DNA of 64,000 nucleotides from an uncultured virus (IMG/VR IMGVR_UViG_3300048502_000088) (Duplodnaviria; Heunggongvirae; Uroviricota; Caudoviricetes). The stretch is taken from IMG/VR virus record IMGVR_UViG_3300048502_000088, positions 1 to 64,000 of that record. The stretch is one strand, 5' to 3'. The first letter of the stretch is position 1. Every line of letters starts with the position of its first letter. The notes below the pieces were generated by a model that saw nothing but the letters and a program-made list of their open reading frames with translations, did not search any database and was not told the DNA's origin. The translations under genes and the position numbers were made by a program. Of this stretch, positions 25,225 through 46,623 are shown in pieces.

Positions 25225-25767
25225 TTACGAGACCGCGTTAGCCACCGAAAGTATCAGCGCCCTGGTATCCGCCGACCGCTTTGGTAACTGCGGTCGGTCA
25301 CTCTCCACGGCAGCGGCGGCCCAGTCTCCCCGCGCGACAGCGGCGCAGAAGGAGGGGAAGCTGCCGATACCGCCTTTGACGTTGTAGTCGATGTCAACGG
25401 CGGCGGTGGCGACCGGAATCGGCAGCGCGTCGAATTCGGGGATACGCTTACGGCACTGAGTTATGGAAGAACCCAGGCGCTGCGCCATAATTTCCTGTGC
25501 GCGGTCGAGTGGCATTCGAATTTTACTGAACTGCTCGTAATATCCCGAGCACTTACCCGGTTCGCTGGACTTCACCGCGCTGAACTGCTCTGCGATGGGC
25601 GCGATGCCGGCGGGTGACGTGAGGCCAAACAGATTGGCGAGCGCCACGGCGGTAGGGCACATAATGCCGAAGCCGATGGTCACGTTGGACTCCGTGTCTA
25701 AGTATGGCCATGCGCAGAATCCCTCCTGCCGCCCCGTAAACGCAATGCAGGACTCTATCAGCGTCAC
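25225..25767 (-). CDS. endolysin, lysozyme (GH24-like)
   Basis: catalytic-type E-x8-D-x5-T in QEGFCAWPYLDTESNVTIGFG; GDWAAAAVE. Confidence 0.85.
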   Translation of the reverse strand: MTLIESCIAFTGRQEGFCAWPYLDTESNVTIGFGIMCPTAVALANLFGLTSPAGIAPIAEQFSAVKSSEPGKCSGYYEQFSKIRMPLDRAQEIMAQRLGSSITQCRKRIPEFDALPIPVATAAVDIDYNVKGGIGSFPSFCAAVARGDWAAAAVESDRPQLPKRSADTRALILSVANAVS

Positions 25768-26044
25768 GAGTGATCGCCCTCCGGCAAAGCGCAGACAATA
25801 CAGTTTCCGCCACCATGCGGAGGCACGAACGTATGCGCCGCGCCGCGCTGGATAGCGGTTCCGAAAGCCTCTACCGTTCTGTCGATGTTATACCCCACGA
25901 TATGCACCGGGAAAGACTCCTTCAGCTTGCCCCGCTCCGCATCTTCAATCAGATTCGTCAGCATTTCCCGTGCGTTTTCCGGTTCGCACCTCAGTGCCAG
26001 GATGGCGGCGTCTATGGCTTGCTGGCGGCGGGTCACGGCATTAT
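25764..26044 (-). CDS. hypothetical protein
   Basis: ORF between lysin and HNH-like gene; start uncertain. Confidence 0.45.
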
Positions 26045-26574
26045 TTGATGGCACCGTGCGCCCTGCCACACGCGATCCAGTCGGAGATTATGCAATCCTG
26101 AACCTGCTTTAGGGTCATCGTTCCAGCGCACAGTTCGCGCTTCATTTTGTCCTCTACCTGGTCTTTGACCCGCGCTCCGTATTGCCCGCTGTAGCTTTGT
26201 GGCCACAGGTTGCGCGGGTCCGTTGGGTGACCAGAAATTTCCAGGCTCAAAAAATGGTCCTCTTCGTATTCGGATGGCTTTCCGGGGAGGTGGAGCGCCA
26301 CCATCTGCTGGGCCTTGAGTTTATTTGTGTACGCCCCTGGAGGTCGGATCGTCTTCGTCCAGCCAGCCCTACAGACGGTTGAACTGATATTTTCCTGCGT
26401 TACGTCTGGGTTCGGAAAACCCGGTACGGACGCTGGCGGATATGCGCTCTCCGGCCCCACGCGATTGCCCTGCGCCACCGCCATCGGAGGCGAAAAGCAA
26501 ATGTACATGGCCGCCATGGCAAGGCCAGCGGCCAGAAGGATCAGAGATATGCGGTTGCTCGTGGGGTGTTGCAT
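26041..26574 (-). CDS. exported HNH-like (His-Me) protein
   Basis: signal/TM N-terminus; YEEDHFLSLEISGHPTDPRNLWPQ..KDQVE. Confidence 0.7.
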   Translation of the reverse strand: MQHPTSNRISLILLAAGLAMAAMYICFSPPMAVAQGNRVGPESAYPPASVPGFPNPDVTQENISSTVCRAGWTKTIRPPGAYTNKLKAQQMVALHLPGKPSEYEEDHFLSLEISGHPTDPRNLWPQSYSGQYGARVKDQVEDKMKRELCAGTMTLKQVQDCIISDWIACGRAHGAIK

Positions 26575-28650: not shown

Positions 28651-28693
28651 ATAAAAAACGGCCCGCGCGGGTCAGTCAGTACCCGCGCGGGCC
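28651..28693 (-). terminator. strong intrinsic terminator
   Basis: 13-bp perfect stem GGCCCGCGCGGGT/ACCCGCGCGGGCC followed by T6. Confidence 0.85.
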
Positions 28694-29106
28694 AATGTGT
28701 GTGGTTGATCTCCGGGACTCCTGCCCAGACTGGTTTCCATCCTACCGCGTCCTTCCCGACATTTCAACCCGCGTCCTTCTGTCACGCTCCAAATCTGATT
28801 CCTCTTCGAGTTTATCCATGCTTCCGATTTTGAGCATGAATCCTTATCGGCGCAATACTGGATTTGGATAGCCCCCGAGGCTTCATTGCGGCGGGATCGG
28901 CGCGTCGTGCCTGTCCGCCCACTCTTCGAGCGTATCCGTCTCCGGGTACGGGGCCAGGCAGTAGCGTATCCCGCGCGCCGTCAAGAGCGCTTATCTCCTG
29001 CAAGCGTCGTTGTTCCAGCGCGATTGTGAGTAGTCATGCTTATGCTAACCTTCGGATGCCTGTAAAGTCAGCTTCTGGCGCGCGTCATGAACGGTGGTGA
29101 TAATGC

Positions 29107-29841
29107 TTACCGCTCCATTGCTCCAGCTATGGCAGACCGGCTGAATGGAAGACTGGGGCCGTCGTCTTTCGGCCACGGCATAGGCGCCTCCCATCGACGC
29201 TTGCGCTCTGCGATTTCTTCCGCCGTAGGGAATCCTTTTGGGACAGACATCGGCACGTGGCCATCCAAGTTAGGCTCCAGACCTGCGAGCCGCATTGCAT
29301 TTTTAACGCACCCAAACCGCGAGGCAAGCATCGTTGACCCGAGGCCGATCTGAGATAATTCCGCCGAGGTCGGCGTGTGCCCGGTCTGCGCCGCAAGAGT
29401 TTGGATCTTGAACAGAGACTGCGCCTTGCACCTGGCGCGCTCGTTGTCGTACTCCGCCGTGTTTCCGGCTGTTCCCTTGCGTCGCTTGTTGGTGGCTATC
29501 CTGGCTGCGTCCTTCTTCTCGACGTCCACGCGGTTCAGGTTGCCGCCCCCCTCAAATGCTTTTGTGGCCAGCGTCCGGTGCTTCTGCCGAACGGTAAAGC
29601 CAGACAGCGAAGATCGTATCCGCATACCGTGCTTCTCGTTGTATGTGTCCCGCTTTATTCCGTGTGATTTAATGTGGTTGCCCATGCCACTGAACCATTC
29701 TCCGCACTCGTGGCACTTGGTCTGGTCTGTGGTTTCGTCGTACTCAATCGCTCCCAACACGGACTCGCCAGACACTGCAAACGGAGCCTTCTCGGCATAG
29801 GTGAATTGGTGTCCGCGAATCAAAACGTGTGTGGCTGGCAT
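29107..29841 (-). CDS. Ros/MucR-type C2H2 zinc-finger protein fused to a homing-endonuclease-associated helical repeat
   Basis: CHECGEWFSGMGNHIKSHGI..YNEKHGM..SL; GHTPT..RFGCVKNAMRLAGL. Confidence 0.7.
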   Translation of the reverse strand: MPATHVLIRGHQFTYAEKAPFAVSGESVLGAIEYDETTDQTKCHECGEWFSGMGNHIKSHGIKRDTYNEKHGMRIRSSLSGFTVRQKHRTLATKAFEGGGNLNRVDVEKKDAARIATNKRRKGTAGNTAEYDNERARCKAQSLFKIQTLAAQTGHTPTSAELSQIGLGSTMLASRFGCVKNAMRLAGLEPNLDGHVPMSVPKGFPTAEEIAERKRRWEAPMPWPKDDGPSLPFSRSAIAGAMER

Positions 29842-29866
29842 AAGTCAATTTTTGAAACCTGCCCGC

Positions 29867-30043
29867 TTAACACGCTCGGATGTCTGTAAATTCGGAAAGC
29901 AGCGCATTGCCCGCACGTATCCGCGCCAGGGCGATCATCCCGCTCTCCTCAGCGCGCACGGTCGTACAGTCGCGGTACAGGTATGACACCGGACCGGACT
30001 GCGCAAACGCGGAAGCGGAGAGAAGGAAAAATAGCGGAATCAT
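29867..30043 (-). CDS. 58-aa exported peptide
   Basis: MIPLFFLLSASAFA|QS signal peptide; below the ORF-track cut-off. Confidence 0.45.
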   Translation of the reverse strand: MIPLFFLLSASAFAQSGPVSYLYRDCTTVRAEESGMIALARIRAGNALLSEFTDIRAC

Positions 30044-30167
30044 GGCGCTATCGTTCCCGCGTGCGGGATTGGCACAGCTGCGCTTACCAGCAGGAAGATT
30101 GCGAGTAGCAGGAGGACCGCTAACAAAAGGATGCTTGATGTTCTCTCATTTTCCGGTGTTCGTACCT

Positions 30168-31823
30168 AGCGTTTTCCGCGATGACGGAGAGAAGAAAAAG
30201 TAGCGGTCCAGTTCGTCCCGTCGCTGGTCAGCTGATCTCATGTGGCGTAACTCGATCCGCTGCCCGCTTCGGTCGCGCCCCACACGATGCTGGTGCCATC
30301 GCTGATCGACGCAGACAGCCCCACGTACGTCGCGGGCGGCAGGTTGCCGTAGGTCGTGTTGCGGTAGTACGCGGGGACGCCCGCGCCGTAGAAGTTCGTG
30401 ATCCGCGACCATTCGTTGCCGTTCAACAGCGTTGGATTGAGGGTCGGGTCCATCGCGGTCAGCACGAACGATCCGACCGAAGATCCCGACTGAATGTCGA
30501 ATCCGTAAGCGGTCGCCGAAAGAGACTGGCCGGACTCGACAGCAATTGCGGTGCCGTTCATCTCGATCCTCTTGACCGTAGAGTTGTAGAGCTATTCTTC
30601 CCCAGTGCGGAGTGAATCCATTCCACGCTGCGTTGGCATAGATCGTACATGCCGTGCAAAGGAAGCTGCTGATAGTAGACGTCGCGCCGAAGTCCAGCCA
30701 ACTGGCCGTATTGCCTCCCGAGATGCTCCAGCGCACGCTGTTGAATGAAAGCGTGCCGACATGGTTTACCGTGTTCACCAAGCTGTTCGGCGTCACGAAA
30801 ATACCGTTTGTAAGCTGGATTGACTGCACCTGGTCGATCGTGCTGGAACCATTGGCATCATTGCCGATGATGACACCGTTGCCCGATCCGCTCAGAAAGA
30901 AGTTACTGATTTGCACCGGACCCAATGTACAGGAGCCGCAGATGTTTCCCGCGTTCTGGTAGGCGTAGGCTCTCAACAGCGAAAGATTGCCATTGCAGGT
31001 TACGTTGGTGAACTGTGCGGTCCCACCACTGCCAGAGTAACCTTCTGGCAGGTTAAGAGCTATGCAGTCATCATACCCGGTAATGCGGACGTCCGACCCT
31101 CTTATTGAGCCGAACGGCCCCGCTGCGTGGATACCGTCCGTATTCGAGCCGACCGCCGTTGTGGAGTCAACCTCCACGTTGGTATACTGCTGCGTACCAA
31201 TGTTAGTCGTGAACACAGCGAACGTTGGCGCATTCTTAATCCTTACGTTAGTAAGCTCAAAATACTCAAGGTTCGCGGCGAGAATTCCCGCGCACCAGGC
31301 TGTTACGCAGTGCAAGTCTCCGGTGCTGTTACCAGCCCGGTTGCCGTTCACAGTGATGTCGCGGATAATGAGCGAGCCGACCTGGGCGGGAGGCGTGCCG
31401 ACGGCCATACTGATACCGCAGGTGAGCCCACCGGCAGTTCGCCCTGGAAAGTCTGTACAGATCGGAGTGGCGTTGCTGCCGTTCGCGATCACAAAGCTAC
31501 TCACGTTCATCCCCAGCCCTTCGAGGTAGGCGACCGCGCCTATGGGGATAATGATCGGACCATTAACCAAAAACGGATAGTCGGCAATCAAATGCACCGG
31601 GTTCGTCGCCGTCGCCACCGCAAAGGCTGCGTTGACGTAGGCCAGTTCGTTCGGACACGCACTGCCGTTGGCTTGCAGCATCGTGTCGGTGTTGCAGCCC
31701 GCCGTGATGTCGGCCACGGGCGCGCCCATCTGACTGAGCAGCACGCGCGTACCCGCGCCGTTCGTGATCGTCTGCGCGGATGCGGCGGCACATGCAGAAA
31801 AGCAGGACGTATAGGCGATTCAT
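30168..31823 (-). pseudogene. beta-helix polysaccharide depolymerase (GH28/pectate-lyase-like), interrupted
   Basis: NTDGIH..GYDDCIAL GH28-like motifs; frameshifts near 31800 and 30590 and an in-frame TGA at 30238. Confidence 0.7.
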
Positions 31824-33157
31824 CACTGGACTCCTTGGCTGTAAATCGCGGTTACCTGCGTCGAACTGAGCGCGTATGGGTAGATGCGAACGTCGGCGAT
31901 GCCGCCGGAAAGCGGGTAGCCGCCTCCATTCGCGAAAACCCCCAGCGTCACGGGAACGGCGTTGGCGATCGACGAAGTCAGATTGTCGGAAACGGTATGG
32001 TTTGGCGCCGTTACCACGCCATTCGCATAGGCAGTGAACCCCGCGACCTTTTCCGTGCCGTCTGTAATCGCACAGAAGTGAAACGCCGTACCCGTCGTCG
32101 GAACGAAGGTGAAGTTTTCGTCCGCAAAACCACCCGGTATACTGTTGGCCAACAACAACGTCAATCGGTTGTTTCCCCCGGCCTGAAGGAACACGCCCCA
32201 GCCACGGTCGTTGTTGGACCCGTCAAAGGTGCCCACCAACCCTGCCTGGCTGCCGGCGCCGGACGTCTGATTGGCCCATGCGCAGACCGAAAACGGAGTC
32301 GATCCGGTGAAGTTCGTATTCGTGTAATTCGCCGCCGCCGATGTTGTTGTGGACCCGTTAAACGTCAGCGTGTTCGGGAGCAACCCGGCAATGTTCGTGT
32401 ACGTCGCGTTCGTGTTCGTCAGGTTATTGGAGTGACCGCTCGAATCGGCCATCGGGCTCGACCCTTCGTTCATTTTCCACTGCTGCACGGGTCCGGTCCA
32501 TACAACCACTGATCCGTTGACCGTGTGCGTCAGCGATCCGTCCGTGCCGGAGATCGTCACCACGTTTGCCGTGCCCGTTGTGGTAGAAGACGATGCGGTA
32601 CCGTTCGGCGTGATTGAGACGGTGGACGTGCCCGAACCGGTAATTGTCGCGGGAGAGAACACACAGGACACCGTGGTGCTCGTGCTGCACGAGAGCGTTA
32701 CCACTCCCGAATATCCAAGGAGAGCCCCCACGGTGACAGTCGCCGTCGCTGGAACCGGCGTGTTTTGAAAAACCGTAGCTGACGCCGCGCCCACGATCAG
32801 GTAGAAATCGGCTGTCGGCTGGGTGCTGGCCGCATACGGGATCAGCCATTCGACCCCATTGCACGCGCCCGCACACGTTATGGAAAAGGAATTGGCCGCA
32901 TAGCTTGAGATATTCCCGCACGCCGAGAATTGACATCCGGAAAGCGTTGTCACGGCACTAAACCCCGGCACATACGGTGATGCCAGCCCGAGGTTGTGCG
33001 TGATCGTCTGCGATCCCGGCGCGGCGAAATAAACGACTCGGCTTGCGAATCCAGGGCCGCTTGCCCCAGTACTCCCCGGAGGAATACTCGGAGGCTGCGA
33101 CCAAAGAACGACAGCCAAAAGGCTGCCGACAGCCAAAAGGCCGGCCAGCCACCTCAC
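31823..33157 (-). CDS. exported LamG/concanavalin-A-like lectin domain protein
   Basis: signal peptide; WKMNEGS..FSVCAW..GGIADVRIYPYALS. Confidence 0.85.
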   Translation of the reverse strand: MRWLAGLLAVGSLLAVVLWSQPPSIPPGSTGASGPGFASRVVYFAAPGSQTITHNLGLASPYVPGFSAVTTLSGCQFSACGNISSYAANSFSITCAGACNGVEWLIPYAASTQPTADFYLIVGAASATVFQNTPVPATATVTVGALLGYSGVVTLSCSTSTTVSCVFSPATITGSGTSTVSITPNGTASSSTTTGTANVVTISGTDGSLTHTVNGSVVVWTGPVQQWKMNEGSSPMADSSGHSNNLTNTNATYTNIAGLLPNTLTFNGSTTTSAAANYTNTNFTGSTPFSVCAWANQTSGAGSQAGLVGTFDGSNNDRGWGVFLQAGGNNRLTLLLANSIPGGFADENFTFVPTTGTAFHFCAITDGTEKVAGFTAYANGVVTAPNHTVSDNLTSSIANAVPVTLGVFANGGGYPLSGGIADVRIYPYALSSTQVTAIYSQGVQ

Positions 33158-33411
33158 TGCTCAACCTCTGACGTAAAGAACATTAGTAACGCCTCGCTGG
33201 CCATTATAGCGTTTGCGGAGACGGGTGCGCTACCTTCGCCGCCTGGCGGGTTGCCATGCCCCGGAAATCAAAAAATCGGGGCGCACCCAGAACAAAGAAA
33301 AGTGGATGCGCCACAGCTTGTGTGTGTGGCCGCTGGTCGAGGGCGACTCACGAAGGATATTGTATCAGAAAAACGGGAACGCTCCGGCGTCTTAAAGCCC
33401 GCGAACGGTCC

Positions 33412-33753
33412 TCACTTTTTCTCCGGTGCCGAGCTTGCCGCCGGACTTGCCACGCATGCGAAAACATCCTTCTTCGCTTCGGCGAACATCTGCCCCTCGC
33501 CGCAGATGTGTTTGACGAGTTCGATTGCCTCCCGCGCCTCAATCGCGGCAGAGTCGGCTCGGTCAGATGCCGCCTTGGCTTCCGTGCGCGCGGCCTGTGC
33601 GTTGGCTATCTTCGCCTGCGCCCGCCAGATCGTCGCGATATCCTTGTCTGTCAGGACGTGAAGCTCAACGGACTTCACATCTTCGGCATTTGTGGCTGCG
33701 ATAATCAGCATACCAGTCCCGATCAATCTTTTTATTTGTCTAAACTTTTCCAT
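33412..33753 (-). CDS. small exported coiled-coil protein with two Cys
   Basis: GGAGG RBS; basic then hydrophobic N-terminus ending ATNA. Confidence 0.6.
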   Translation of the reverse strand: MEKFRQIKRLIGTGMLIIAATNAEDVKSVELHVLTDKDIATIWRAQAKIANAQAARTEAKAASDRADSAAIEAREAIELVKHICGEGQMFAEAKKDVFACVASPAASSAPEKK

Positions 33754-33767
33754 CTTTCTTTTACCTC

Positions 33768-36700
33768 CTACGGTATTGAAGCTACATAAGGAAACGGCCC
33801 CGTGAGTATCGTGCATCCAGACGGAACCCCGCCGGTGACGGTCGTGCAGCTCAAAAGATTGGTGAATGGAGTACCAGCCGTGCTTCCTGGGTACGGAGTC
33901 GTCACGGCGATATTGTTGGTGCCTCCGGCTCCGATTGTAATCCCGCTTCCGGCGATGTATGGCCCGGCAGTGGCGGGCGGCCCGGTAAACGTGAGAGTCG
34001 TAAACGTGCCGGAAGCCCCTGACACGCCCGAAGTCGCGATCAGATTGCCCGCTGTCCAGTTCCCGGACATGTAGCCCGTAGTGCCGCTGACGGCCCCCGA
34101 TGAGCCATTGGCAGTAAACCCGCCTGAGGCAACGTTTAAGGCAGTCGTGCTGGTGCCCGTAATGCTCAGCGCGGTAAACGACGGACTGTCGCCCGTTCCG
34201 ACGCTCTGGATATGAGATCCGGTGATTGCGCCGGTGTTGGACACCGCGAATACCCCTGAACCGGAGCCTACAATAAGCGACCGAACCCCGATGTCCCCCT
34301 GGCCGTTCCAGGCAAAGCCCGATTGGGTTTGGAAATCCAGGTTAGTGCCTGAGTTTGTAGACGTGAATTCCTTGCCTACAAAATTATTGCTCGTGTCAAC
34401 AATCGGAGTGCCGGAAGAACCTGCACCGTAAATCGCGGCCTGAAAATACGAGGGCACGCCAACGGTGAACGCCGATGCCGTCAGGCTGGTGAGGACTGAG
34501 CCGCCAATCTTGAGATCGATTTCGGTCGCCGCGCCGAGCGTCAGGGTTGCGCTGGCCGTTATCAGATTAGGCAGACTCGCGATGCCGTACTCCGCAGCGC
34601 CGCCCGATCCGTTACCGCCGCAGAACTCTATTGTGCCCGGATTGCCGCCGGATGGCTGGACGTAGTTCAACGTCCCTTCGGTGCCAACCGTCGTGCTGAC
34701 CGGGTTACCAGGTACCCAGATGCCAGCGCGGCACAAGCCACCGCTGGACAGATCCGGCATAAGCTGCGCTCCACCGTCGTGCAGGATAAGGGATGGAATG
34801 AAAGTACTTGCACCACTCTCGGTGTCTAACTCCATATAGCTTAGGGCGCTCGATGCTGGATTTATGTACTGAGTGATAATTTGCCCACCAAAATATGTTG
34901 CGTTTTGGTAGGAAAAAATAACCTGCGATTGACCGGTGTTGTTAGCTGGCAGGTCAACGTAAAGAGGAGATCCCACGGGCGGCGGGATCGCCGCGCCGCT
35001 GGCCAGTGTATACATCTTGTACGTCCCGGCTTCATTTTGCAGGCATACTTGCAGAGTTGACGCCGTTCCCGGCGATCCGGCTACGTAAGCGGTGGGCCAG
35101 ATGTCATAAGGGTCGCCCGCGTTGCAACCCGGAGTGGCTGGCGTCAGTTGCAGGCCGCCCTGTCCGCGCAAGCGGGCGATCACGCTCACCGGCGAAGGGT
35201 ATGCGGGAGCCACATTCACCAGAGACAGGAATTCGATATCCGTGTAATTCCCGCCGGAGTTATTTTGCGAACGGATACGGGCATAGTCCTGGCCCTGGAA
35301 CAGAAAATCCACTGAACCGGTGATCGGCGCATCCGTGCGGTTCGTGTCGGCGCGAATGGTGCCATCGGTCCACTTTGCGTCCGTGTTCACATACAGTCCG
35401 CCGCCCGGATATGTACCGCCAAGGCCGGTGGGTGCCCCGTAGCCCCGATCTATTGCGAGGCATGTTCCATCTGTTGTCGTACCCCCGGTGTCGTTCCAGG
35501 TTGGCTGTGTAGTGCCCGACACGCAGTAATACCCGCTCACTATCTGTTGGGCGTGGCCCGCCGCATCGATCACATAGACCTCGCCATAAGTGTAGGTCGT
35601 GGACGCACGCCACTCCTGTCCGGTATTGTTGTAATCGAGAGATGCCGCATTCAATCCGACCGGAGAGTAGCCGCCCTTGTAATTACCGTCTATTCGAAAC
35701 AAGTCCGGCTGTCCACCGGTTGCAGCACCGCCGCCCGTCACGGGGAAAATCTGGAACGTGGCCCACTGCCCGCGAGTTGCGTCTATCTCACTTACTGCAC
35801 AGTAACCAATCGCGAAAGTCGGCTGACCGAGCGAATCGACCCCCGGACAGACATTAAATCTCGGCAAGGAAAAATGGCTGCATCCTGAGAGGTCCATCAC
35901 GTTGAAGCCAGTCACGCCATAGGAAGTGGCCACAGCGGTCGTGGTGATCTGATTACCGCAGGCGGCAGGGGCGATAAATACCAGCGGAGCGGCACTCTCG
36001 CCGCCACCGATTTGCACCTGGTTATTTGTCGATTCGATGACGCCGCCAGGGGTCCATACAGGCTCAATTACGACCGGAGCCAGAGCCACGCCGTAAGCGG
36101 CGTTGGAGTCGGAAGATCCCGCAAAAGGAGCCGTCAGCTGGATGTGGCAGTAATCCGTCACCGAGGCCACGAAGGCTTGTTGGTTCTGCCCGGTCTGTGC
36201 AGGAAAGTAAATCGGCGTACCGGCCGGAATGCCAACAAATACCGGGGACACAACAGGAGACGTCGAGCATGGGGCATTTGCGGTCACCGTATACGATCCG
36301 TTGCTGACCGTCACCGTGCCAACGGACTGAAACGCATTACACCCGTTGGTCTGCAAGTTGTTATAGACGCTCTCTCCAGAGCCTTGAATACTTAGGCACA
36401 CGCTGGATTGCTCGATAAGACAATCCGTACAATTATTGGTGTTGTTGTCGTGGCCGGTCGCGAAAGCCGCTGCCGTGCTGTGTGCCCACCAGCCACGATC
36501 CGCGCCCTGGATATGGACGCGAGTCCCCCAGGTGAACTGTACCTCAGCACCCTGATCGGCGGTGATCTCAAGGCCCGCCGCAACGTGGTCGTTGGCGCTC
36601 CCTTGCAGGAGCACATCCTCGATTACGGTGTGCTGCGTGTTTGCGGTCACTCCAGGCTGCGAAGAGGTCAGCGTAGCGTAGACCTGCACCAGGGATACGC

Positions 36701-37889
36701 CTGCAAGCCCTGGGGATTTCGAAACCTGGAAGCCCTTAATCTTCGAACGATATCCCATCATTCGGATGACGGGGGTGTTGGCCACGGTGCCTTCGATGAA
36801 TACCTGGCCAGACGCCTCAGCCTCAAGGCACGCGGATATCAGCGTCAGGCCTGTGACCTTGTACGAACCCGAGGGAACCACCCCGCAATTTCCTGTCAGG
36901 GCGGCTTGCGCGGCCAGCGCATTCAGTCCCGCCGTTGAATCGTTCTGCCCGGTCGGATCTACCGGATAAACGGACGACACGAGTGTGTCTCCGAGACGCT
37001 GCTGTACCGTCGTAAAGAGCGTATTGGTACCCGGCGCGTTGTGGGTAGTGTTAACGGAGGTGCCGCTTATAGTGGCAGAGAAGGTCCACGAATCGGGGTT
37101 GTTCATTCCATCGGTTGTCGGACCCTCATTGGTCCACGTCAGCGCACCGGAATTGTCCGATGTCGTACCGTGGAGAGTCGAATTCCATGACGGACTTCCC
37201 GATGCCTGGCTGCTCTGTGGGCAGCTCGGGGAGCAGGCCGTCACCACCTGAATGTATCCGCTGACAGCTACAACACCGCCAGCGCCATACGGTGTAGCAT
37301 TGGCCCACTGCGGGTTCCAGGTCGCGCTGTGGCCCGTGGACGCGCCGAACCCGATGATTACTCCGTCCGTCAGGGGGATACACAGCCGCGCGCCCATATC
37401 CCGGAAGGTCACGTTTGCGCTAACCACCGAACCGCCCGAGGTGCTCCAGGATGGCGTGCCGGACGACTGACTGGTATATGGCGACACGGAAGCGGTGACC
37501 AGTTGCGAATGGCCCGATCCGACTACCACCTGACCAACCGAGTAAGCGTGTGAGTTGGCAAACGATGCAAGGGATATGGGTATGCCGGACGACCACGAAC
37601 CGCCGTCCTTCTGCCATGCAATCGTATCGGGAGTTCCGCTGGTCTGAACGCGCGCCTGATAAACGTGACTGGCTGCGTTACCTCCCGTGTATGCCACAGT
37701 GCAGTTGGTAGCGTCGTTGAGCCGTTCAAACGGATACGCAAGCCCGAGCGACGTGATCGACAGTGGCGGCGCATAGTACACCGGACCCGTGAGCTGACCC
37801 CCGGCGTAAAGGACCGGAGGGGATGCCGTCTGCGCGAAACAGGCCGGATACGCCGAGCAAAATAAAGCGATGGTGATTATCTTTCTCAT
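33768..37889 (-). CDS. large tail-fibre/tailspike-like protein with signal peptide, three CBM5/12-like modules and a beta-helix
   Basis: MRKIITIALFCSAYPACFA|QT; (W/F)xAxxxY..P(S/T)W repeats; VDPTGQNDSTAGL tailspike motif; ATGA-type overlap with the tail-tip gene. Confidence 0.75.
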   Translation of the reverse strand: MRKIITIALFCSAYPACFAQTASPPVLYAGGQLTGPVYYAPPLSITSLGLAYPFERLNDATNCTVAYTGGNAASHVYQARVQTSGTPDTIAWQKDGGSWSSGIPISLASFANSHAYSVGQVVVGSGHSQLVTASVSPYTSQSSGTPSWSTSGGSVVSANVTFRDMGARLCIPLTDGVIIGFGASTGHSATWNPQWANATPYGAGGVVAVSGYIQVVTACSPSCPQSSQASGSPSWNSTLHGTTSDNSGALTWTNEGPTTDGMNNPDSWTFSATISGTSVNTTHNAPGTNTLFTTVQQRLGDTLVSSVYPVDPTGQNDSTAGLNALAAQAALTGNCGVVPSGSYKVTGLTLISACLEAEASGQVFIEGTVANTPVIRMMGYRSKIKGFQVSKSPGLAGVSLVQVYATLTSSQPGVTANTQHTVIEDVLLQGSANDHVAAGLEITADQGAEVQFTWGTRVHIQGADRGWWAHSTAAAFATGHDNNTNNCTDCLIEQSSVCLSIQGSGESVYNNLQTNGCNAFQSVGTVTVSNGSYTVTANAPCSTSPVVSPVFVGIPAGTPIYFPAQTGQNQQAFVASVTDYCHIQLTAPFAGSSDSNAAYGVALAPVVIEPVWTPGGVIESTNNQVQIGGGESAAPLVFIAPAACGNQITTTAVATSYGVTGFNVMDLSGCSHFSLPRFNVCPGVDSLGQPTFAIGYCAVSEIDATRGQWATFQIFPVTGGGAATGGQPDLFRIDGNYKGGYSPVGLNAASLDYNNTGQEWRASTTYTYGEVYVIDAAGHAQQIVSGYYCVSGTTQPTWNDTGGTTTDGTCLAIDRGYGAPTGLGGTYPGGGLYVNTDAKWTDGTIRADTNRTDAPITGSVDFLFQGQDYARIRSQNNSGGNYTDIEFLSLVNVAPAYPSPVSVIARLRGQGGLQLTPATPGCNAGDPYDIWPTAYVAGSPGTASTLQVCLQNEAGTYKMYTLASGAAIPPPVGSPLYVDLPANNTGQSQVIFSYQNATYFGGQIITQYINPASSALSYMELDTESGASTFIPSLILHDGGAQLMPDLSSGGLCRAGIWVPGNPVSTTVGTEGTLNYVQPSGGNPGTIEFCGGNGSGGAAEYGIASLPNLITASATLTLGAATEIDLKIGGSVLTSLTASAFTVGVPSYFQAAIYGAGSSGTPIVDTSNNFVGKEFTSTNSGTNLDFQTQSGFAWNGQGDIGVRSLIVGSGSGVFAVSNTGAITGSHIQSVGTGDSPSFTALSITGTSTTALNVASGGFTANGSSGAVSGTTGYMSGNWTAGNLIATSGVSGASGTFTTLTFTGPPATAGPYIAGSGITIGAGGTNNIAVTTPYPGSTAGTPFTNLLSCTTVTGGVPSGCTILTGPFPYVASIP

Positions 37890-40800
37890 AAAGATGCGAT
37901 TGGCTGGTCACTGACCCGCTGACTGGTCTCTTGCGTATTGCCGGATGAGTTGGTGCTCAACTGCAAGACGCAACCGGTGTTGTTAACCGAGGTCGCCGTA
38001 TTCGTGATCTGGTTGGCCAGGGTGAAGTACGTAGCGTCGAGCGTGGCCACCCATCCCCCCGTCGTCCCGGTCGGGTCTTCCTGCGTTTCCAGGCTCCACG
38101 GCGTGTCCGTACCGGCGACGGTACCGTAGTTGATCGGCTGAACGACGGTCACGTTTCCGGTTGTCGGGGTGAGAATGAGAATATTCGGCCCCTTGGATGC
38201 GTCGGGTGTCGCTACGCCTCCGACTACCGGCACGATATAGTTCGGCGATGGAGCCCCGCCATCCGGCGGCGGCACGATGTAAATCATACGGAGGCCGTCG
38301 CCCAGCTCGGTCGAATACAGGCCGTTTGAATTGGCGCCGAGCAACTCGATTAGCGCAACGAATCCCTCAAGGTTCGCTACGGGAAGGTTAACCAGCGGAA
38401 CGGCATTCGTAGATGTCGTGGTCGGAGCCACTGAGTTAATCGCAGCCGTTGTGTCGATTTGGGTTCTCCATGTCGGCTCTTCTTCGATAAAAATCGTGCC
38501 GGTTCCGGGAATATTCTTCCACGGCGTATTGGTCCATCCTGTATTCGTGATGTCCGTTATCGTAACGGGAGGATCGGCGGGGCTTGCCGTCCCGGTTGGA
38601 TCGTAAAGAACCCGAAGCAGGTTGCCTTTCTCGTTGCTGTTGGCGACGCAAACGGACGTGCTGCTCATCACCTGGAGAGTAGCCGATGAAATGCCGACCG
38701 TGTAAGGCCCGGTCCCGCTGAGTGTTGTTATTTTCGTCCCTGAAATCAGATATCCGGGAGACGTAATGTACTGGCCAATCGCAATCGCTCCCGAACTCAC
38801 GGTCACGGTCAGCGTAGTTGCTCCGCTCCCGGCAGTCGCGGTTGCTATTGCCGTTCCCAGTCCATACGGAGCATACGGGCTCACCAGACCGGCATCGGAA
38901 ATACTGGTGGCCGTCGCGGCGCTCGACAGCGTGGAGATCAAAACAAGATCACCAGCGCCATAAAGCAATCCTGTCGGACTGATCACGTTCAAAGTGCATG
39001 TGGGCGTTCCGGTGTCGTTTCCAATAATCGGCTGAATCGCATACTGCTGCGTGGCCGGCAGTCCGGCCTTGCTGACCAGAATGAGGAAGCGTCCCGCGAA
39101 TTCACCCGATGAGGGGGCGGACGGGCAATTAACAACCACAGTGGAAGCCGTTGAGGACACCACGTTGGTTGCGGCGATGCCGCCATGGATGACCTGTTTA
39201 CCCTGTGCGTGGAAGTTGGTCGCCTGTGGATCGGGAGGGCCGTATCCCTCAGAGTTATACTGTTGAATCGTTATCGAAGTCGGTGCTCCTGCCTGCTTTC
39301 CCTGCCCCACCAGATTGTCGAAGCTCGGCCCGATAAAAACTTCGTACCCGGAAGTGCCTGACGGGAATGTGACGTTGAAGGTTGCCCAATACCCGCTGCC
39401 TGTAATTGTAAACTCGCAGAGATGCGACCCTGTGCTGTATAGTCCATTGGAATCGATGGCGAAAACCTGAGCTACGTATAGGCCATTCGGAGCGATCCAG
39501 TTCGGAGAATGGCCACCCGTAAGTGTCGCGGTGAAGTCAATCGTCGGCGCAGCAACAGCCGGCGAGAAAGAGTTTACCGGCGGCGTGCCTTCGATGGCGA
39601 CGGCGTTGCCCGATTCAACCTGGGCCATCGTAAAAGCATAACCGGAGGGGGCGAAAAAATACTGCTGCGAATAAGGCTTCAGGCTCAACGGCGCACGCAC
39701 GGACGGCGCGGTCAGGGTATAGCCATAATCCACGGCATCGGAAAGCGCTTGCGCCTGCTGACCGGCCATATTGAACGCCGGAAACTTGAAATGCAGGGTC
39801 TGGCCAACCCGAAAACCGGTCGGCGAGTTTCCCGATGCCCCGGCTGGCGAATACGTCAACTGGAAAGCGCTGGCGGCGTTATTGCTGAAATCCGCAAACG
39901 GGGCGCCCGAAGAGTGGGCCGTGCAGGGCGTCCCGAACACTCCCCGGCGCAGGTAGGTCAGGTCGAAGGCGTTCGATCCGGTCAGCGTGGCCGTCTTCCA
40001 GCTGACTATCTCCTGGTCGATCAAGGCCAGCGAGACATTGTTGTCGCACTGGGATTGCGTAAAACTACTCAAATCCCCGAGCGACTCCTGAAGATTCACG
40101 CTCAGGGTATTCGTCGTATCGGGAACATTCGTATTGGCCACGGCGGCGAGGCCGGATGTCAGATATCCCACGTTGGCGTTAATCGTTTGCGCGCCGATGG
40201 CATCGTAAGAGCCTCCGCCATCGGTTGACACAAAGACATTAGCGCCACCCCAGTTCGGGCCGCCCGACAGCGCGATGGCGAGGATGAATGAAGTTGCTGT
40301 TACGGCAGATGACATTTGCGGCGTTAACTCCAGAAAAACGGGCACATTCGTCGCCCCCGGCAATGCGGTGAACCCGGCAGTGAAGCCACCGGCGCTGGCC
40401 TTCTGGTAGAGCGATGGTGTCAGTATCGGGAACGGCAGTACCTCGGCGGTCATGGCCAGATTGCCGTTCTCGTCCTCTTCTATGGTAAGAATACGTGCCG
40501 TGCAGAAACCGGTTGACGGATACTGCTCGGGCAGGTCCACCAGGTCCATCGGCTCCAGGATGCTGTACGCCCACCCCAGCGTGAAGGCGACCTTGCGGAC
40601 CATGTAGACGTTGCGCTTGAGTTGCGTGCTGAGAACCGACTGCGCGACGGTAGCCTCACAAATGCAAGGCAGGGAGATGACCGCCCCGGTGTTACGCCGC
40701 CCGACCTGGTACTGAATCGACCAGGCGTCCTCGTCTTCCATGATCTCGGGGTTATACTGATTGCCCCTGTTGTTATATTGCAGTACAAGGCGGTTGTTGA

Positions 40801-42157
40801 TATCGCGTGGGGCCGTGCGGGAGAATACCACCGGAGCCTGGCCTTGTGGCGCTATGAAAGAGTCCAGGCTGAGGCTGTAGACGGGGGTCAGATTCGGCAC
40901 GAAGGTGACGCCGTTTCCGGTCATCAGACTATCCGCGTAGGTGGCAAACTTGAGGATGCCTTCGCTCGAAAACATCTCCATGTTCCCGACCAGAAACCAC
41001 TCTGCCAGGTATCTTGAGTACGTGTCCTGGTTGGCGATGATGGGGGAGATGCCGAGTCCGGCGGCGAGGCAGTAGTTCGTGACGCCGCCGCATCCGAAGA
41101 AGAGCACGTTGTACAGATAACCGCCAGCGACCGTGGTGGTGAGGGTCAATTGCGTATCGGAGACGATGGTCGCGATGACGTACTGTGCGCCGTATATGGC
41201 GATGTTGGTGCCCACGACAAGACCGCCAAACTTGTCCCCGGATACCCAGTTGACCACCGTCAGCGATACGTTAACGACCCCGTACGGGGCCTGCATGCTC
41301 CCGATACTGGCATACGGGAAGTGAGCGCAATTGAAGTCCGTTAACAGAAAGAATATGGCCTCGGTGACCAGCGCATCGGGGGACAGGACGGCGGCGAATG
41401 GCACCGTAGCGCCCGAGGTGGCTGAGGACACGAGCGTTATTGAGGTACCGGAGTTAACTGAGGCCACCGGGCAGACCACGCCGTCGAGCGTGATCGTTCC
41501 CGTTAACTCGATCATGGACGGGAAGCCGATGGTGCCGGTGAAACTCTGGCACCCGGCGTTGGCGGTTACCGAGGTGCCGGAGACCGTAACGGTCCCCGCG
41601 TACGTGGCCTGGCCGAAGATTTCGTATGAGTAGTTGGAGATCGCGCCGGAACTGCCGAGGTTGGCATCCTTGTACCAGGCAATCGTCATTTCGCTGTAGC
41701 CGAGGATCTGATTGGCCGGGTATGGCCCGAACTGGCCACCAGCTGAGAGGACGGTGTTTAGAGTGGGGTCCTGGCCACGGAGGCCAGTGGAAAAGTACAG
41801 CGGGATCGGAGATTGGGAGTTGGTCGGGACATAGATGCTGCGGTCGCGCCAGACCGTGCCGTATGAGCTTGGGTTCGGGCCACCCTGGCAGATAAAAATT
41901 GCGAATGAGGCGACGTACAGGACATCAACCGCGCCCTTGCCACCGCCAGACCCCTTACCGACCTTGCTGCTGCCGCTACTGCCCGGTATGGTATGCCAGT
42001 CCCCAATCCACCCGACGCCGCCAGTGACTCTTGGGGTGCCAATAGCGATCTGTAAAGCCTGCCCACGCAAGCTTTGCTGGACCGGGTACGCGCCAAAAGG
42101 CTGCGTATTCTGGAAGGAAGCTATCGGGGGCGGGCCGGAACTGCCAAATAAAGACAC
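37886..42157 (-). CDS. central tail tip / host-specificity protein (GTA megatron/gpJ-like)
   Basis: RGQALQIAIG, ISNYSYEI, LEPMDLV, LRRGVFGT, FKFPAFN. Confidence 0.85.
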   Translation of the reverse strand: MSLFGSSGPPPIASFQNTQPFGAYPVQQSLRGQALQIAIGTPRVTGGVGWIGDWHTIPGSSGSSKVGKGSGGGKGAVDVLYVASFAIFICQGGPNPSSYGTVWRDRSIYVPTNSQSPIPLYFSTGLRGQDPTLNTVLSAGGQFGPYPANQILGYSEMTIAWYKDANLGSSGAISNYSYEIFGQATYAGTVTVSGTSVTANAGCQSFTGTIGFPSMIELTGTITLDGVVCPVASVNSGTSITLVSSATSGATVPFAAVLSPDALVTEAIFFLLTDFNCAHFPYASIGSMQAPYGVVNVSLTVVNWVSGDKFGGLVVGTNIAIYGAQYVIATIVSDTQLTLTTTVAGGYLYNVLFFGCGGVTNYCLAAGLGISPIIANQDTYSRYLAEWFLVGNMEMFSSEGILKFATYADSLMTGNGVTFVPNLTPVYSLSLDSFIAPQGQAPVVFSRTAPRDINNRLVLQYNNRGNQYNPEIMEDEDAWSIQYQVGRRNTGAVISLPCICEATVAQSVLSTQLKRNVYMVRKVAFTLGWAYSILEPMDLVDLPEQYPSTGFCTARILTIEEDENGNLAMTAEVLPFPILTPSLYQKASAGGFTAGFTALPGATNVPVFLELTPQMSSAVTATSFILAIALSGGPNWGGANVFVSTDGGGSYDAIGAQTINANVGYLTSGLAAVANTNVPDTTNTLSVNLQESLGDLSSFTQSQCDNNVSLALIDQEIVSWKTATLTGSNAFDLTYLRRGVFGTPCTAHSSGAPFADFSNNAASAFQLTYSPAGASGNSPTGFRVGQTLHFKFPAFNMAGQQAQALSDAVDYGYTLTAPSVRAPLSLKPYSQQYFFAPSGYAFTMAQVESGNAVAIEGTPPVNSFSPAVAAPTIDFTATLTGGHSPNWIAPNGLYVAQVFAIDSNGLYSTGSHLCEFTITGSGYWATFNVTFPSGTSGYEVFIGPSFDNLVGQGKQAGAPTSITIQQYNSEGYGPPDPQATNFHAQGKQVIHGGIAATNVVSSTASTVVVNCPSAPSSGEFAGRFLILVSKAGLPATQQYAIQPIIGNDTGTPTCTLNVISPTGLLYGAGDLVLISTLSSAATATSISDAGLVSPYAPYGLGTAIATATAGSGATTLTVTVSSGAIAIGQYITSPGYLISGTKITTLSGTGPYTVGISSATLQVMSSTSVCVANSNEKGNLLRVLYDPTGTASPADPPVTITDITNTGWTNTPWKNIPGTGTIFIEEEPTWRTQIDTTAAINSVAPTTTSTNAVPLVNLPVANLEGFVALIELLGANSNGLYSTELGDGLRMIYIVPPPDGGAPSPNYIVPVVGGVATPDASKGPNILILTPTTGNVTVVQPINYGTVAGTDTPWSLETQEDPTGTTGGWVATLDATYFTLANQITNTATSVNNTGCVLQLSTNSSGNTQETSQRVSDQPIASL

Positions 42158-42302: not shown

Positions 42303-42572
42303 TTACACCACGCGGACTTCCTCATGTGCCCCACTAAACAACCGGCACAAATCCCCCACGCACCGCAGCCCCGCATACTCCTCGTTCGTAATCACGCGAA
42401 ACTCATTCTCCACGTTCGTGATCGCAGACATGAACGCAAGCGAGTCGATGTCGGCGGCGGTCGTGGCCAGCGTGATCGGGCGGACTTCGGTGTGTCCGGC
42501 CATGCGGGAGGCGCCAGGGAACGCCTGGGCCTCGCGCTCGAATATGGCTATGATGCGCTGCTCAGTGGTCAC
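42303..42572 (-). CDS. acyl carrier protein-like protein
   Basis: DIDSLAFMSAITNVENEFRVITNEEYAGLRCVGDL matches the ACP DSL..E.EF..I..E....TVGD pattern; GTGA-coupled. Confidence 0.7.
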   Translation of the reverse strand: MTTEQRIIAIFEREAQAFPGASRMAGHTEVRPITLATTAADIDSLAFMSAITNVENEFRVITNEEYAGLRCVGDLCRLFSGAHEEVRVV

Positions 42573-43039
42573 AGCTTGACGCGCGGGTCTGGCCCCTGTG
42601 AAAATGCCAACGTGACCATTGCGTACTTGTCCCATGAGCGGGTAATGTCCATGCTCTGCGGATAGAAGCCTATCGATTTTCCGAGTGCGATGAACTCAGC
42701 GAGCCTTGTTTCGTCGATAGGCATGAGCGCAAACGCAGACTCAACGTTTCTTCCCAAAGCTGGCGGCGGCGCTGGCGGCGTGACGGAGGTAAACGCATAG
42801 AGTGTGAAGGCGTCTCGGTGAGGCTCTCCGCATTTATAGCATCGCCTGGGGTTGATAGCGCTCCAGCCGTTAAAGGTGAACAGGTCGCGGACGGATGGTT
42901 CGGCAACCGACACGTCGGCGGGAAACTCATGGCCATTGCCCCTGAGTTCCACCATCTTTGCCTCAACCCGGTCACCTGTAAACAGCCCGACAATCGGCGC
43001 GATAAGCGCGGAGAAAAAAGATCTGCGTTTGACTTCCAT
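42569..43039 (-). CDS. hypothetical protein with twin-arginine-like N-terminus
   Basis: MEVKRRSFFSALIAPIVGL; TAAAAT 7 nt before ATG. Confidence 0.55.
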   Translation of the reverse strand: MEVKRRSFFSALIAPIVGLFTGDRVEAKMVELRGNGHEFPADVSVAEPSVRDLFTFNGWSAINPRRCYKCGEPHRDAFTLYAFTSVTPPAPPPALGRNVESAFALMPIDETRLAEFIALGKSIGFYPQSMDITRSWDKYAMVTLAFSQGPDPRVKL

Positions 43040-43091
43040 GTTTGCTATTTTAACTCCCGGACTGATCCGCCACCATGGTCCACTTCCGCGC

Positions 43092-43619
43092 TCACACCGG
43101 CACCACGGCAGCGTGCGCGTCAACCCCATGCAGCCCGAACGGAGAAGCCACCGGCGCAGGCGCGCTCCACGGCGAATAAAATACCCGCTTCAGGTTCTTC
43201 ATATCTCCCTGCGTGCAGTCGGCCAGTTGAACGCAGGCCTTCCAGCGCGCCTGGATAACGACCGGGTAGCCCTGCCGCGCTACGATGGCGGCGTGGCCGT
43301 AAGCCATGCCCACGTAAAACAGGACGCAATCACCGGGACGCGGCACCACTACCTCATGCGCCCGCGCAGCGACTGGTCCGATCAGGATCTGGCTGTCCCT
43401 CTGGTTCAGAAAGAAGTCGTGCGAGACGTTAGCTGATGGCGTTAGGTCCATTGCGATGCCAGCGGCGTTGTAGGATGCCATCAGGAGGTTGCCGCAGTCA
43501 ATGCCGACCCCCTTCACGGAAGACCCTTTATGAAACGGGGTGCGAAGCCAGGACTGGGCCTCGGCTAGCACAGCCATGCGACCCTCGGCCTCTGTCATGG
43601 GCATGGGCGTCGCGGTCAT
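43092..43619 (-). CDS. NlpC/P60 tail-tip peptidase
   Basis: AQSWLRTPFH..KGVGIDCGNL..PRPGDCVLF..HAAIV. Confidence 0.88.
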   Translation of the reverse strand: MTATPMPMTEAEGRMAVLAEAQSWLRTPFHKGSSVKGVGIDCGNLLMASYNAAGIAMDLTPSANVSHDFFLNQRDSQILIGPVAARAHEVVVPRPGDCVLFYVGMAYGHAAIVARQGYPVVIQARWKACVQLADCTQGDMKNLKRVFYSPWSAPAPVASPFGLHGVDAHAAVVPV

Positions 43620-43864
43620 GGCAGGCGGTCGATGGCGTCGGCATTGGTGAATCTGCCAGATTGATGCCTGATGGCGTCCATCACCTTGCGTGCGATTTCC
43701 TCAGGGCATGATCCGTGAACATGGACGTGCATTGTTTGAGCGCCGATCAGATGCGGTTCAGCGCTCTTCTGCGGGGGCTTGGGGTGCGGTTTGGTGGCCA
43801 GCGCGTCACGTCGTGTCCACGCCGGATTCGGCGATCCATCTTCGAGTTTATGTGTCATGCTCAT
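43616..43864 (-). CDS. hypothetical protein
   Basis: ATGA-coupled ORF. Confidence 0.45.
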   Translation of the reverse strand: MSMTHKLEDGSPNPAWTRRDALATKPHPKPPQKSAEPHLIGAQTMHVHVHGSCPEEIARKVMDAIRHQSGRFTNADAIDRLP

Positions 43865-43873
43865 GGTGTTTAC

Positions 43874-44092
43874 TCAGCCCCCGACCGTACTGTTGCCATG
43901 GTCGGTGGCTATTGATTCTCCCGAATCCATGTTAGCAAGTCTGGAGATCGCCGCCACCAGCAAATTTATTACCGCCCGCGCCGCCGCCGCGCCCATATGC
44001 AGCACGCATTCGCCCTGGTTTACGTACAGGCTGATGTGGTCGCCGGTGAGGTAGATTTCGGCGTCGTTGACGGGGGATTCGTAGAGGGGCAT
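43874..44092 (-). CDS. hypothetical protein
   Basis: 72-aa ORF in operon orientation. Confidence 0.5.
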   Translation of the reverse strand: MPLYESPVNDAEIYLTGDHISLYVNQGECVLHMGAAAARAVINLLVAAISRLANMDSGESIATDHGNSTVGG

Positions 44093-44118
44093 TTAGGGCC
44101 TACAGCGAAGCTGGATTG

Positions 44119-44436
44119 TTATGAACCGATACCTTGAGCTTCGATTACGCGGTGGGCTTCCGCTGACAGAACCGGAATTTGATCTACTGTGAATGTGCCC
44201 TCAGATACGGCTATCATCGTGCTCCACACCGCGCCTGCGTCTTCTGCCGTAGCATCCCAGTCCCCCTCTTCCAACATCTCCGCCGTAGCCACCTTCGGCA
44301 CGCACACGTACCCCATGGCTTCAATGGCGCTGGCGATCCGTTCGCCGTCAGCGCCAGCAACTTTCATGATTACTTCCCGGCCTGTCAAGATACCACCGCC
44401 GCAGTCAACACACGGCCACGCATCCGAATACGCCAC
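44119..44436 (-). CDS. hypothetical protein
   Basis: GYVCVPKVATAEML motif common in phage small proteins; start uncertain. Confidence 0.5.
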   Translation of the reverse strand: MAYSDAWPCVDCGGGILTGREVIMKVAGADGERIASAIEAMGYVCVPKVATAEMLEEGDWDATAEDAGAVWSTMIAVSEGTFTVDQIPVLSAEAHRVIEAQGIGS

Positions 44437-46619: not shown

Positions 46620-46623
46620 GGGG

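Follow-up and report, generated by a model that had tools for sequence, protein, structure and literature searches.

Signal-like N-termini on a module of putative glycan-active proteins next to the tail-tip gene of an uncultured siphovirus-like phage

The first 64 kb of the single 96,486 bp virus record IMGVR_UViG_3300048502_000088 of IMG/VR, the stretch analysed here and called the window below, belong to a siphovirus-like phage that carries most of its genes on the minus strand. Immediately downstream of its tail-tip gene lies a module of four adjacent genes, for proteins of 1373, 113, 444 and, in intact form, 545 amino acids (aa), each of which begins with a signal-peptide-like N-terminus. 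The reading that we tentatively prefer, with a confidence that stays short of even, is that the module encodes Sec-exported, non-virion depolymerase and lectin proteins that would act on the surface glycans of the host; export, cleavage, enzymatic activity, substrate and absence from virions are parts of it that we infer. The first-pass annotation of this DNA had proposed export with either virion assembly or release of enzymes degrading capsule or exopolysaccharide (EPS). Its export signals found support and the released option is the one favoured here, while nothing was found that shows the proteins joining the virion.

Signal-like N-termini of four adjacent genes

Signal calls were made with a crude heuristic of our own for the n-, h- and c-regions, which looks for a positively charged n-region, a hydrophobic stretch of 7-15 residues as the h-region and small amino acids at positions -3 and -1. 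At strict thresholds it flagged 6 of the 100 gene calls of the contig and 10 of the 450 non-gene open reading frames (ORFs) of at least 60 aa; relaxed thresholds flagged 9 of the 100 gene calls. The 1373-aa protein (MRKIITIALFCSAYPACFA ahead of QT, encoded at about 37833-37889), the 113-aa protein from its start at 33753 (MEKFRQIKRLIGTGMLIIAATNA ahead of ED), the 444-aa protein (MRWLAGLLAVGSLLAVVLWS ahead of QP) and the intact 545-aa protein (MMKRLYVLLFWSAAVSA ahead of QT in the copy of a sister phage, the 94,887 bp IMG/VR contig L001) all pass the strict thresholds, and their genes are adjacent. Beyond the N-terminus, none of the four contains a 19-residue window with a mean Kyte-Doolittle value of at least 1.6. 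Five signal-peptide ORFs had been listed in the first-pass annotation. The fifth, of 58 aa, is without a charged n-region; because it passes the relaxed thresholds only, has no Shine-Dalgarno motif and carries TAG as codon 15 in the sister phage, it is not counted as a gene here.

The sequence context supports the start codons of the four genes. The stop codon of the tail-tip gene overlaps the ATG of the 1373-aa gene. The start at 33753 of the 113-aa gene has GGAGG 11 nucleotides upstream, and the longer start at 33816 is without such a motif. The 444-aa gene starts with GTG, preceded by GAGG, and the ATG of the 545-aa gene at 31823 is preceded by AGGAG and overlaps the stop of the 444-aa gene.

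The core tail genes had been described as free of such N-termini, and this is what we found: among the tail genes at 42303-56983 the heuristic flagged a single ORF, of 40 aa and probably spurious, and the N-terminus of the tail-tip protein is not signal-like. The signals are not confined to the module, as two further ORFs outside it have signal-like N-termini. One of them, of 162 aa (57522-58010, minus strand), sits among the connector genes, with the head-tail adaptor gene on one side and the next neck gene on the other. Its N-terminus is strongly signal-like (MSNSVKRSVTKILAALAACVAVGYVMA ahead of QT), its start has a good Shine-Dalgarno motif and the protein contains 5 Cys; the sister phage carries it at 99% identity, and Pfam, PHROG and phage tblastn gave no match. 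The other, of 177 aa (26041-26574, minus strand), lies in the lysis region, has Gln after AVA at the end of its signal-like N-terminus (PPMAVA ahead of QG) and showed no family match.

Homologs of the module proteins mostly keep a signal-like N-terminus. The strict heuristic flags 12 of 14; of the two others, one is chromosomal, comes from an Acidobacteriota genome and carries a twin-arginine-like RRRFL motif, and the other is P0032, in which a long n-region precedes an anchor-like segment. The signal sequences themselves diverge while their architecture is kept, and in the 12 flagged homologs the cleavage site judged by eye has A, G, S or C before the cut and Q after it. The same holds for the phage, where Gln follows the by-eye site in six of its seven signal-like N-termini (the 1373-, 444-, 545-, 58-, 162- and 177-aa ORFs), the 113-aa protein being the sole one without it. 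A Gln after the signal peptidase I (SPase I) site, the Q-rule, has been described for Bacteroidetes in a study that did not analyse Acidobacteria, the word 'acidobacteria' occurring 0 times in it (PMC5837995). In 420 kb of the Acidobacteriota genome G100 (loci L021 and L034-L053, alternative starts tried, 99 of 334 ORFs flagged) Gln stands at +1 in 21 of the 99 flagged ORFs against a Gln background of 3.9%, and several further flagged ORFs show AQ a few residues later. This result, from one genome and a crude heuristic, suggests a Q-rule-like habit outside Bacteroidota. We read the Gln-after-site habit as independent support for genuine cleavage by SPase I and for adaptation to a host that shares the habit, probably a member of the Acidobacteriota.

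As far as the heuristic allows, the export signals are thus supported, and the N-termini appear to fit the Sec/SPase I architecture. It could be argued that the hydrophobic N-termini are no export signals at all and that mis-called starts or chance stretches have been read into ordinary cytoplasmic tail fibres. The heuristic is home-made and nothing else called the signals, and it flags the 10 of 450 non-gene ORFs as well as, when alternative starts are allowed, the 99 of 334 bacterial ORFs. We nevertheless hold this explanation to be very improbable, given that the architecture is kept across relatives at 35-48% identity with the conserved mature sequence beginning right after it, that the starts have Shine-Dalgarno motifs or translational coupling, that Gln follows the site in six of seven cases and that four adjacent genes pass.

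Folds, relatives and variation of the module proteins

The 1373-aa protein consists of conserved N-terminal domains, a beta-helix core at about residues 290-630 and a C-terminal extension of about 400 aa with a fibre-like composition. Of its 26 Cys, two lie in the signal and 24 in the mature part, the number given in the first-pass annotation. The argument that had been built on these Cys does not carry, as their density of 1.89% is not distinctive against 1.61% over all 100 gene calls and several cytoplasmic proteins are higher. An exhaustive HMMER search with residues 1-1200 returned 27 proteins at E<=1e-3, only three of which are full-length relatives (P0002, P0003 and P0004, 36-38% identity). 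A fourth relative, a 776-aa ORF at the metagenome locus L008, shows 34% identity over residues 52-925 of the phage protein. In each of the four, a hydrophobic stretch at the N-terminus immediately precedes the conserved mature sequence (YYAxPP...RLNDAxxC). The L008 ORF is flanked by two FkbM methyltransferases and has further methyltransferases, two GT4 and one GT2 glycosyltransferases as neighbours, with a P-loop (AAA_31/ParA-type) fragment and two multi-pass membrane ORFs also nearby; the locus is a bacterial exopolysaccharide biosynthesis cluster. The phage protein shares its mature N-terminus with this EPS-cluster protein and not with phage adaptors.

Beyond these relatives the 1373-aa family is rare in the data searched. 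A word-based homolog search with residues 1-500 recovered only the protein itself, tblastn against 50,697 phage records gave no match, a scan of genome contigs with alignment A1 gave a single match to a 28-residue domain, and a sequence search of the PDB gave nothing at E<=1. Among 401 sampled genomes of one phylum there was no full-length relative; alignment A4 matched 9, all of them partially (about 60-140 of 770 model positions). At its N-terminus the 1373-aa protein has a small, roughly 60-aa domain (…GTPDTFRWRKDGGSW…TTGH) that recurs elsewhere, often in tandem, and corresponds to no Pfam family. Its carriers are signal-free phage proteins and a 1218-aa signal-bearing protein of a Thermoanaerobaculia genome, and its loci include L007 (9431-13087, plus strand), P0009 and P0013.

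An AlphaFold model of residues 21-980 has a mean predicted local distance difference test score (pLDDT) of 37.1; only its beta-helix part, at about residues 290-520, is usable, and residues 1-289 lie below 50. In VIA-align this beta-helix matched tailspike depolymerases at Z 21.3 to 19.5, RbmB (9ozd) at Z 18.0, WceF (6tgf) at Z 17.5 and VexL (6fi2) at Z 16.8. Having a beta-helix in common reveals little about function.

The 545-aa gene is broken in the window. Compared with the intact copy of the sister phage, it has single extra bases at about 31794 and at about 30586-30593, a 12-nucleotide deletion at about 30889 and a 9-nucleotide insertion at about 30244, which introduces an in-frame TGA, 14 codons ahead of the conserved C-terminus. 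In contigs from three peat DNA runs both single-base insertions (31793/4 and 30590/3) are missing and the frame is intact; one of these runs nevertheless agrees with the window in part of its depth at 31793. The first-pass annotation had obtained a signal-bearing frame at 31823 by removing one T, and the sister copy and the three runs bear this correction out in substance. On the strength of these same sources we take the intact, signal-bearing gene to be the normal state, and the broken allele may be uncommon or may stem from the assembly. The idea of a generally decaying pseudogene was considered and dropped, the frame being intact in three other runs. Just past the gene, at 30145-30206, contigs of four runs replace about 58-69 bases by 23-34 others; as the sister phage also differs there, the 3' end of the gene in the window is a minority form.

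The model of the 545-aa protein is a right-handed beta-helix with a mean pLDDT of 65.5. Its Foldseek matches are GH87 enzymes, alginate epimerases, tailspikes and GH28 polygalacturonases, with low TM-scores of 0.3-0.45 and, for the tailspike-type matches, E values of 1e-5 to 1e-3. The family comprises four usable relatives in addition to the sister-phage copy. The protein itself has no Pfam match at E up to 10, and PF00295 scores 27.6 bits in the homolog from G100, 24.8 in P0029 and 16.5 in P0030 (cut-off 22.9). N228-T229-D230 and D252-D253 are invariant across the five-sequence alignment A2 of the family, and may correspond to the NTD and DD motifs that serve in catalysis on the beta-helix of GH28 enzymes. 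A GH28-like identity of the 545-aa protein is weakly supported by these sequence comparisons. Searching the 401 sampled genomes with A2 gave three matches, one of them strong. The chromosomal relative in G100 adjoins a TonB-dependent-receptor-like ORF and other ORFs with export signals, in what is apparently a carbohydrate-use locus.

In the 444-aa protein a Gly/Pro-rich linker and then a middle region connect the hydrophobic N-terminus to a C-terminal LamG domain (PF13385, 48.1 bits, cut-off 27.6, residues 272-435). Its family comprises three usable relatives and the sister-phage copy, and the relatives P0033 and P0034 have classic signals. Sequence searches of the PDB with the 444-aa and 545-aa proteins gave nothing meaningful. 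The signal-like N-terminus of the 113-aa protein leads into an Ala-rich region, a coiled coil as judged by eye; this protein had no match in Pfam or PHROG and nothing usable in Atlas. Among the domains named in the first-pass annotation, LamG and the beta-helix of both large proteins were thus recovered and the GH28-like one was seen through relatives only, whereas a CBM-like (carbohydrate-binding-module-like) domain was returned by no analysis that we ran.

The window and the sister phage differ in a confined region. Nucleotide identity is 99.8% in the tip gene, 98.8% in the 1373-aa gene and 99.9% in the downstream 244-aa gene, and the 113-aa gene is 100% identical apart from a 12-nucleotide indel in the n-region. 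In contrast, it falls to 85.3% in the 444-aa gene and 91.7% in the 545-aa gene. By thirds, the differences in the 444-aa gene number 2, 66 and 143. The hypervariable cassette covers 30600-32700 (19400-21900 in L001), that is, the C-terminal two thirds of the 444-aa gene and most of the 545-aa gene, between flanks that are 99.8-100% identical. Three peat DNA runs hold many variants over the same 30.6-32.7 kb.

This variation bears on the possibility that the module encodes auxiliary metabolic carbohydrate-active enzymes (CAZymes), that is, secreted enzymes of host origin that would degrade plant or environmental polysaccharides of peat, such as pectin, to the nutritional benefit of the infected cell. 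That strains are hypervariable in these genes only fits better with an arms race over a host surface glycan than with the use of a common plant polymer. Moreover, the one 1373-aa relative that could be placed lies in an EPS-synthesis and not a catabolic locus, and the genes stand in the tail operon. We consider the metabolic explanation improbable, even though relatives match GH28 (PF00295), the G100 relative lies near the TonB-dependent-receptor-like ORF and exported ORFs, all 20 of the 20 public runs holding the stretch are labelled peat metagenome, and 5% of prophage CAZymes (3261 of 64,678) are reported to carry signal peptides (PMC13507307).

The variation bears equally on the proposal that the proteins are virion appendages, which after export would fold and form trimers under the oxidising conditions of the periplasm and would dock on finished tails only at lysis, as variable receptor-binding fibres or depolymerases. 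A tip gene at 99.8% identity beside 444-aa and 545-aa genes at 85.3% and 91.7% with conserved N-terminal thirds resembles receptor-binding proteins (RBPs). The position is that of tail fibres, with translational coupling to the tip gene, and no other fibre gene was seen. The top fold matches are tailspikes (Z 21.3 to 19.5), the C-terminal extension is fibre-like and the homolog P0032 has collagen-like repeats. On the other side, we know of no tailed phage that routes virion proteins through Sec, and none was found in literature searches judged from listings and abstract openings. The mature N-terminus of the 1373-aa protein, where an anchor to the virion would be expected, is common to a bacterial EPS-cluster protein; no PHROG or Pfam tail-fibre family was matched; the record carries a broken 545-aa allele; and the roughly 570 extra residues of the tip protein could bind the receptor alone. 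On balance virion appendages seem unlikely to us. Rather unlikely, too, is the specific pathway of Sec-routed fibres with periplasmic folding (perhaps with disulfides and pyroglutamate), the 113-aa protein as a helper and attachment to tails only at lysis. If true, it would be a two-compartment virion assembly pathway of a kind not described for Caudoviricetes.

For the exported, non-virion depolymerases and lectins that we prefer, the course of events would be as follows. The four module genes would be transcribed together with the tail genes. Host Sec would move the proteins over the inner membrane, and SPase I would cleave them, mostly just before Gln. First in the periplasm and then, once lysis has released them, beyond the cell, the 1373-aa and 545-aa enzymes and the 444-aa lectin-like protein would bind and cut nascent or surface EPS or capsule of the host, with the 113-aa protein as a possible periplasmic helper. 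Bacterial enzymes of the WceF, VexL and RbmB type perform this role for their own cell. The phage would benefit by halting the deposition of new capsule, by freeing progeny from the EPS of lysed cells and by opening the matrix near neighbouring cells. The module proteins match no tail-fibre family in PHROG, and no N-terminal domain common to the three large proteins was seen.

Several observations weigh against this account. The signal calls come from a heuristic of our own, which often places cleavage 2-5 residues before the Gln. Leaving the tip protein aside, the stretch from the tip gene to the lysis genes contains no candidate fibre gene that lacks a signal. Just one relative was placed in an EPS locus. 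The conserved N-terminal third and variable remainder of the 444-aa and 545-aa proteins look like the classic pattern of virion receptor-binding proteins. The C-terminal extension of about 400 aa is absent from the bacterial relative, and its nearest Atlas clusters are viral, some of them with tail-fibre families, at scores of 0.84-0.88 that make them leads only (<0.9). The collagen-like repeats of P0032, a homolog of the 444-aa protein, are like those of many phage fibres. As for the variation of the 444-aa and 545-aa genes, it would also fit secreted enzymes that track a variable host glycan.

Gene order and transcription around the module

The features of the region are collected in the table. 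Upstream in the direction of transcription, from about 64184 down to 42303 on the minus strand, lies a siphovirus-type structural module with a head-tail adaptor, tail proteins, an NlpC-like minor tail protein and a 978-aa ORF in the usual tape-measure position.

Table. Features of the signal-bearing module and its surroundings (coordinates in the window)
Feature	Coordinates	Strand	Basis
Tail-tip / host-specificity protein, 1423 aa, gpJ/Rcc01698-type	37886..42157	-	Pfam, PHROG
1373-aa beta-helix protein	33768..37889	-	signal heuristic, homologs, VIA-align
113-aa protein, coiled coil by eye	33412..33753	-	Shine-Dalgarno motif, signal heuristic
444-aa immunoglobulin (Ig) + LamG protein	31823..33157	-	PF13385, signal heuristic
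GH28-like beta-helix gene, broken in window; intact form 545 aa	30238..31826	-	sister copy, peat contigs
58-aa ORF (MIPLFFLLSASAFA ahead of QS), doubtful gene	29867..30043	-	relaxed heuristic only
244-aa protein directly after module	29107..29841	-	HNH_repeat match
Strong terminator-like hairpin, 14-bp stem, 12 G-C pairs, T run	28659..28694	-	terminator scan
Lysozyme-like gene	25225..25767		weak PHROG endolysin match

The tail-tip protein matches PF13550 (Phage-tail_3, 2.6e-22), PF23666 (Rcc01698_C, 8.9e-16) and two PHROG tail families, and extends for about 570 residues past its last Pfam domain. Against the phage records it gave 10 matches, which cover its central third only. Scans of viral contigs with the single tip protein and with the alignments A1, A2 and A3 found only the sister contig and four loci that share one small domain. 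Further downstream of the module are membrane-protein genes and the lysozyme-like gene. Placed between the tail tip and the lysis region, the module therefore sits where side fibres usually are.

In the 244-aa protein, HNH_repeat scores 26.4 bits (cut-off 26) and a Ros/MucR zinc finger stays below threshold at 20.8 bits (cut-off 25.4). EPS genes of alpha-proteobacteria are among the targets of MucR-type regulators, and the MucR-like match adjoining putative EPS-active genes may not be chance.

Transcription was approached with simple consensus scans of the minus strand, which found no promoter-like site and no strong terminator at 29800-37900. Of the 13 terminator-like sites found (shuffle mean 8.9), 12 are weak, with 5-8 pairs; downstream of the tail-tip gene a single strong one was found, the hairpin at 28694-28659. 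Since neither a strong terminator nor a promoter-like site occurs from the tip gene down to this hairpin, the signal-bearing genes and the 244-aa gene seem to belong to the tail transcription unit. The GC content of the module, 0.58-0.59, is the same as that of its flanks. Contigs of a metatranscriptome run lie on pieces of all four genes, with other parts of the module uncovered; they are weak evidence, because such a library can hold DNA.

A role in lysogenic conversion or superinfection exclusion would have the exported proteins remodel or mask the glycan receptor of the host against related phages. Besides the export signals, the lifestyle of the phage could favour it. A serine-recombinase-like ORF (85962-86684, plus strand) and two ORFs judged transposase-like by eye (91475-92428 and 95313-96269, both plus strand) lie outside the window and hint at a temperate or plasmid-like lifestyle, which would suit such a role. 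Signal-bearing morons such as lambda Lom sit beside tail genes. In phages of Porphyromonas gingivalis, genes with signals that obey the Q-rule have been proposed to modify the outer membrane (PMC10367356). The scans argue otherwise, with no promoter-like or strong terminator-like flanks and a GC content like that of the neighbours, and the proteins are far bigger than typical exclusion proteins. The coupling of the first gene to the tip gene also points to late expression. We accordingly give lysogenic conversion or exclusion a low probability.

Comparison with known systems

Phage depolymerases and tail fibres are taken to be cytoplasmic products, and their routine annotation is as virion parts or, in soil viromes, as 'auxiliary metabolic' CAZymes. 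The module represents a third possibility, namely tailspike-like and lectin-like proteins in the fibre position with conserved secretion signals. Tailspikes such as Fri1 gp49 (6c72), CBA120 TSP2 (6w4q) and that of HK620 resemble the module in the beta-helix core and in being encoded just behind the tail-tip gene, and the conserved N-terminus that tailspike RBPs combine with a hypervariable C-terminus is likewise found in the module. Whereas known tailspikes have no export signal and begin with an N-terminal virion-binding domain, the module proteins begin with a signal, followed in the 1373-aa protein by domains common to a bacterial EPS-locus protein. The morons lambda Lom, Bor and T5 Llp are small exported outer-membrane proteins or lipoproteins beside host-recognition genes, with expression signals of their own. 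In contrast, the module showed no flanking promoter or terminator in our scans, and its proteins would be large enzymes and lectins.

In the P. gingivalis phages (proposed family Nixviridae) the predicted SPase I cut exposes Gln on proteins of unknown function, as it would in six of the seven N-termini here. Their hosts belong to the Bacteroidota, however, and the accessible text does not describe a tail-adjacent module of large beta-helix and LamG proteins (PMC10367356). Sec-exported endolysins and those of the signal-arrest-release (SAR) type (fOg44 Lys44, P1 Lyz, R21) provide a precedent for late tailed-phage proteins that use host Sec to arrive in the envelope before lysis, and free depolymerase enzymes are known to make plaque halos (PMC6116005). 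Whereas these endolysins are small peptidoglycan hydrolases of the lysis cassette, the module encodes large beta-helix and lectin-like proteins in the tail-fibre position.

The closest bacterial counterparts are WceF of Pantoea stewartii, VexL and RbmB, in which, as in the beta-helix proteins of the module, an export signal at the N-terminus precedes a right-handed beta-helix. WceF, a tailspike-like EPS hydrolase that the cell exports, is encoded in the stewartan cluster and trims the cell's own EPS (PMC7949094). Its place in an EPS biosynthesis cluster is shared by the L008 relative of the 1373-aa protein, whereas the phage gene itself lies in a tail operon. The signal of WceF is of the twin-arginine translocation (Tat) type on a chromosomal gene, and those of the module are Sec-type on phage genes. 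Nor is sequence similarity to any PDB chain detectable, and the 1373-aa protein has its additional C-terminus of about 400 aa.

Each ingredient is known, and in literature searches judged from listings and abstract openings we found no description of a whole module in tail-fibre position that joins large glycan-active proteins with conserved Sec signals and whose families also occur in bacterial polysaccharide loci. If the proteins are exported effectors, phages of EPS-rich soil bacteria would attack the glycan coat of the host from inside the envelope before lysis, and the way such genes are counted in host-range prediction and carbon-cycling surveys would change. If they are carried on virions, tail assembly could span two cell compartments. 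In either case the module links phage tailspikes to bacterial EPS-locus enzymes such as WceF through a family found in both settings.

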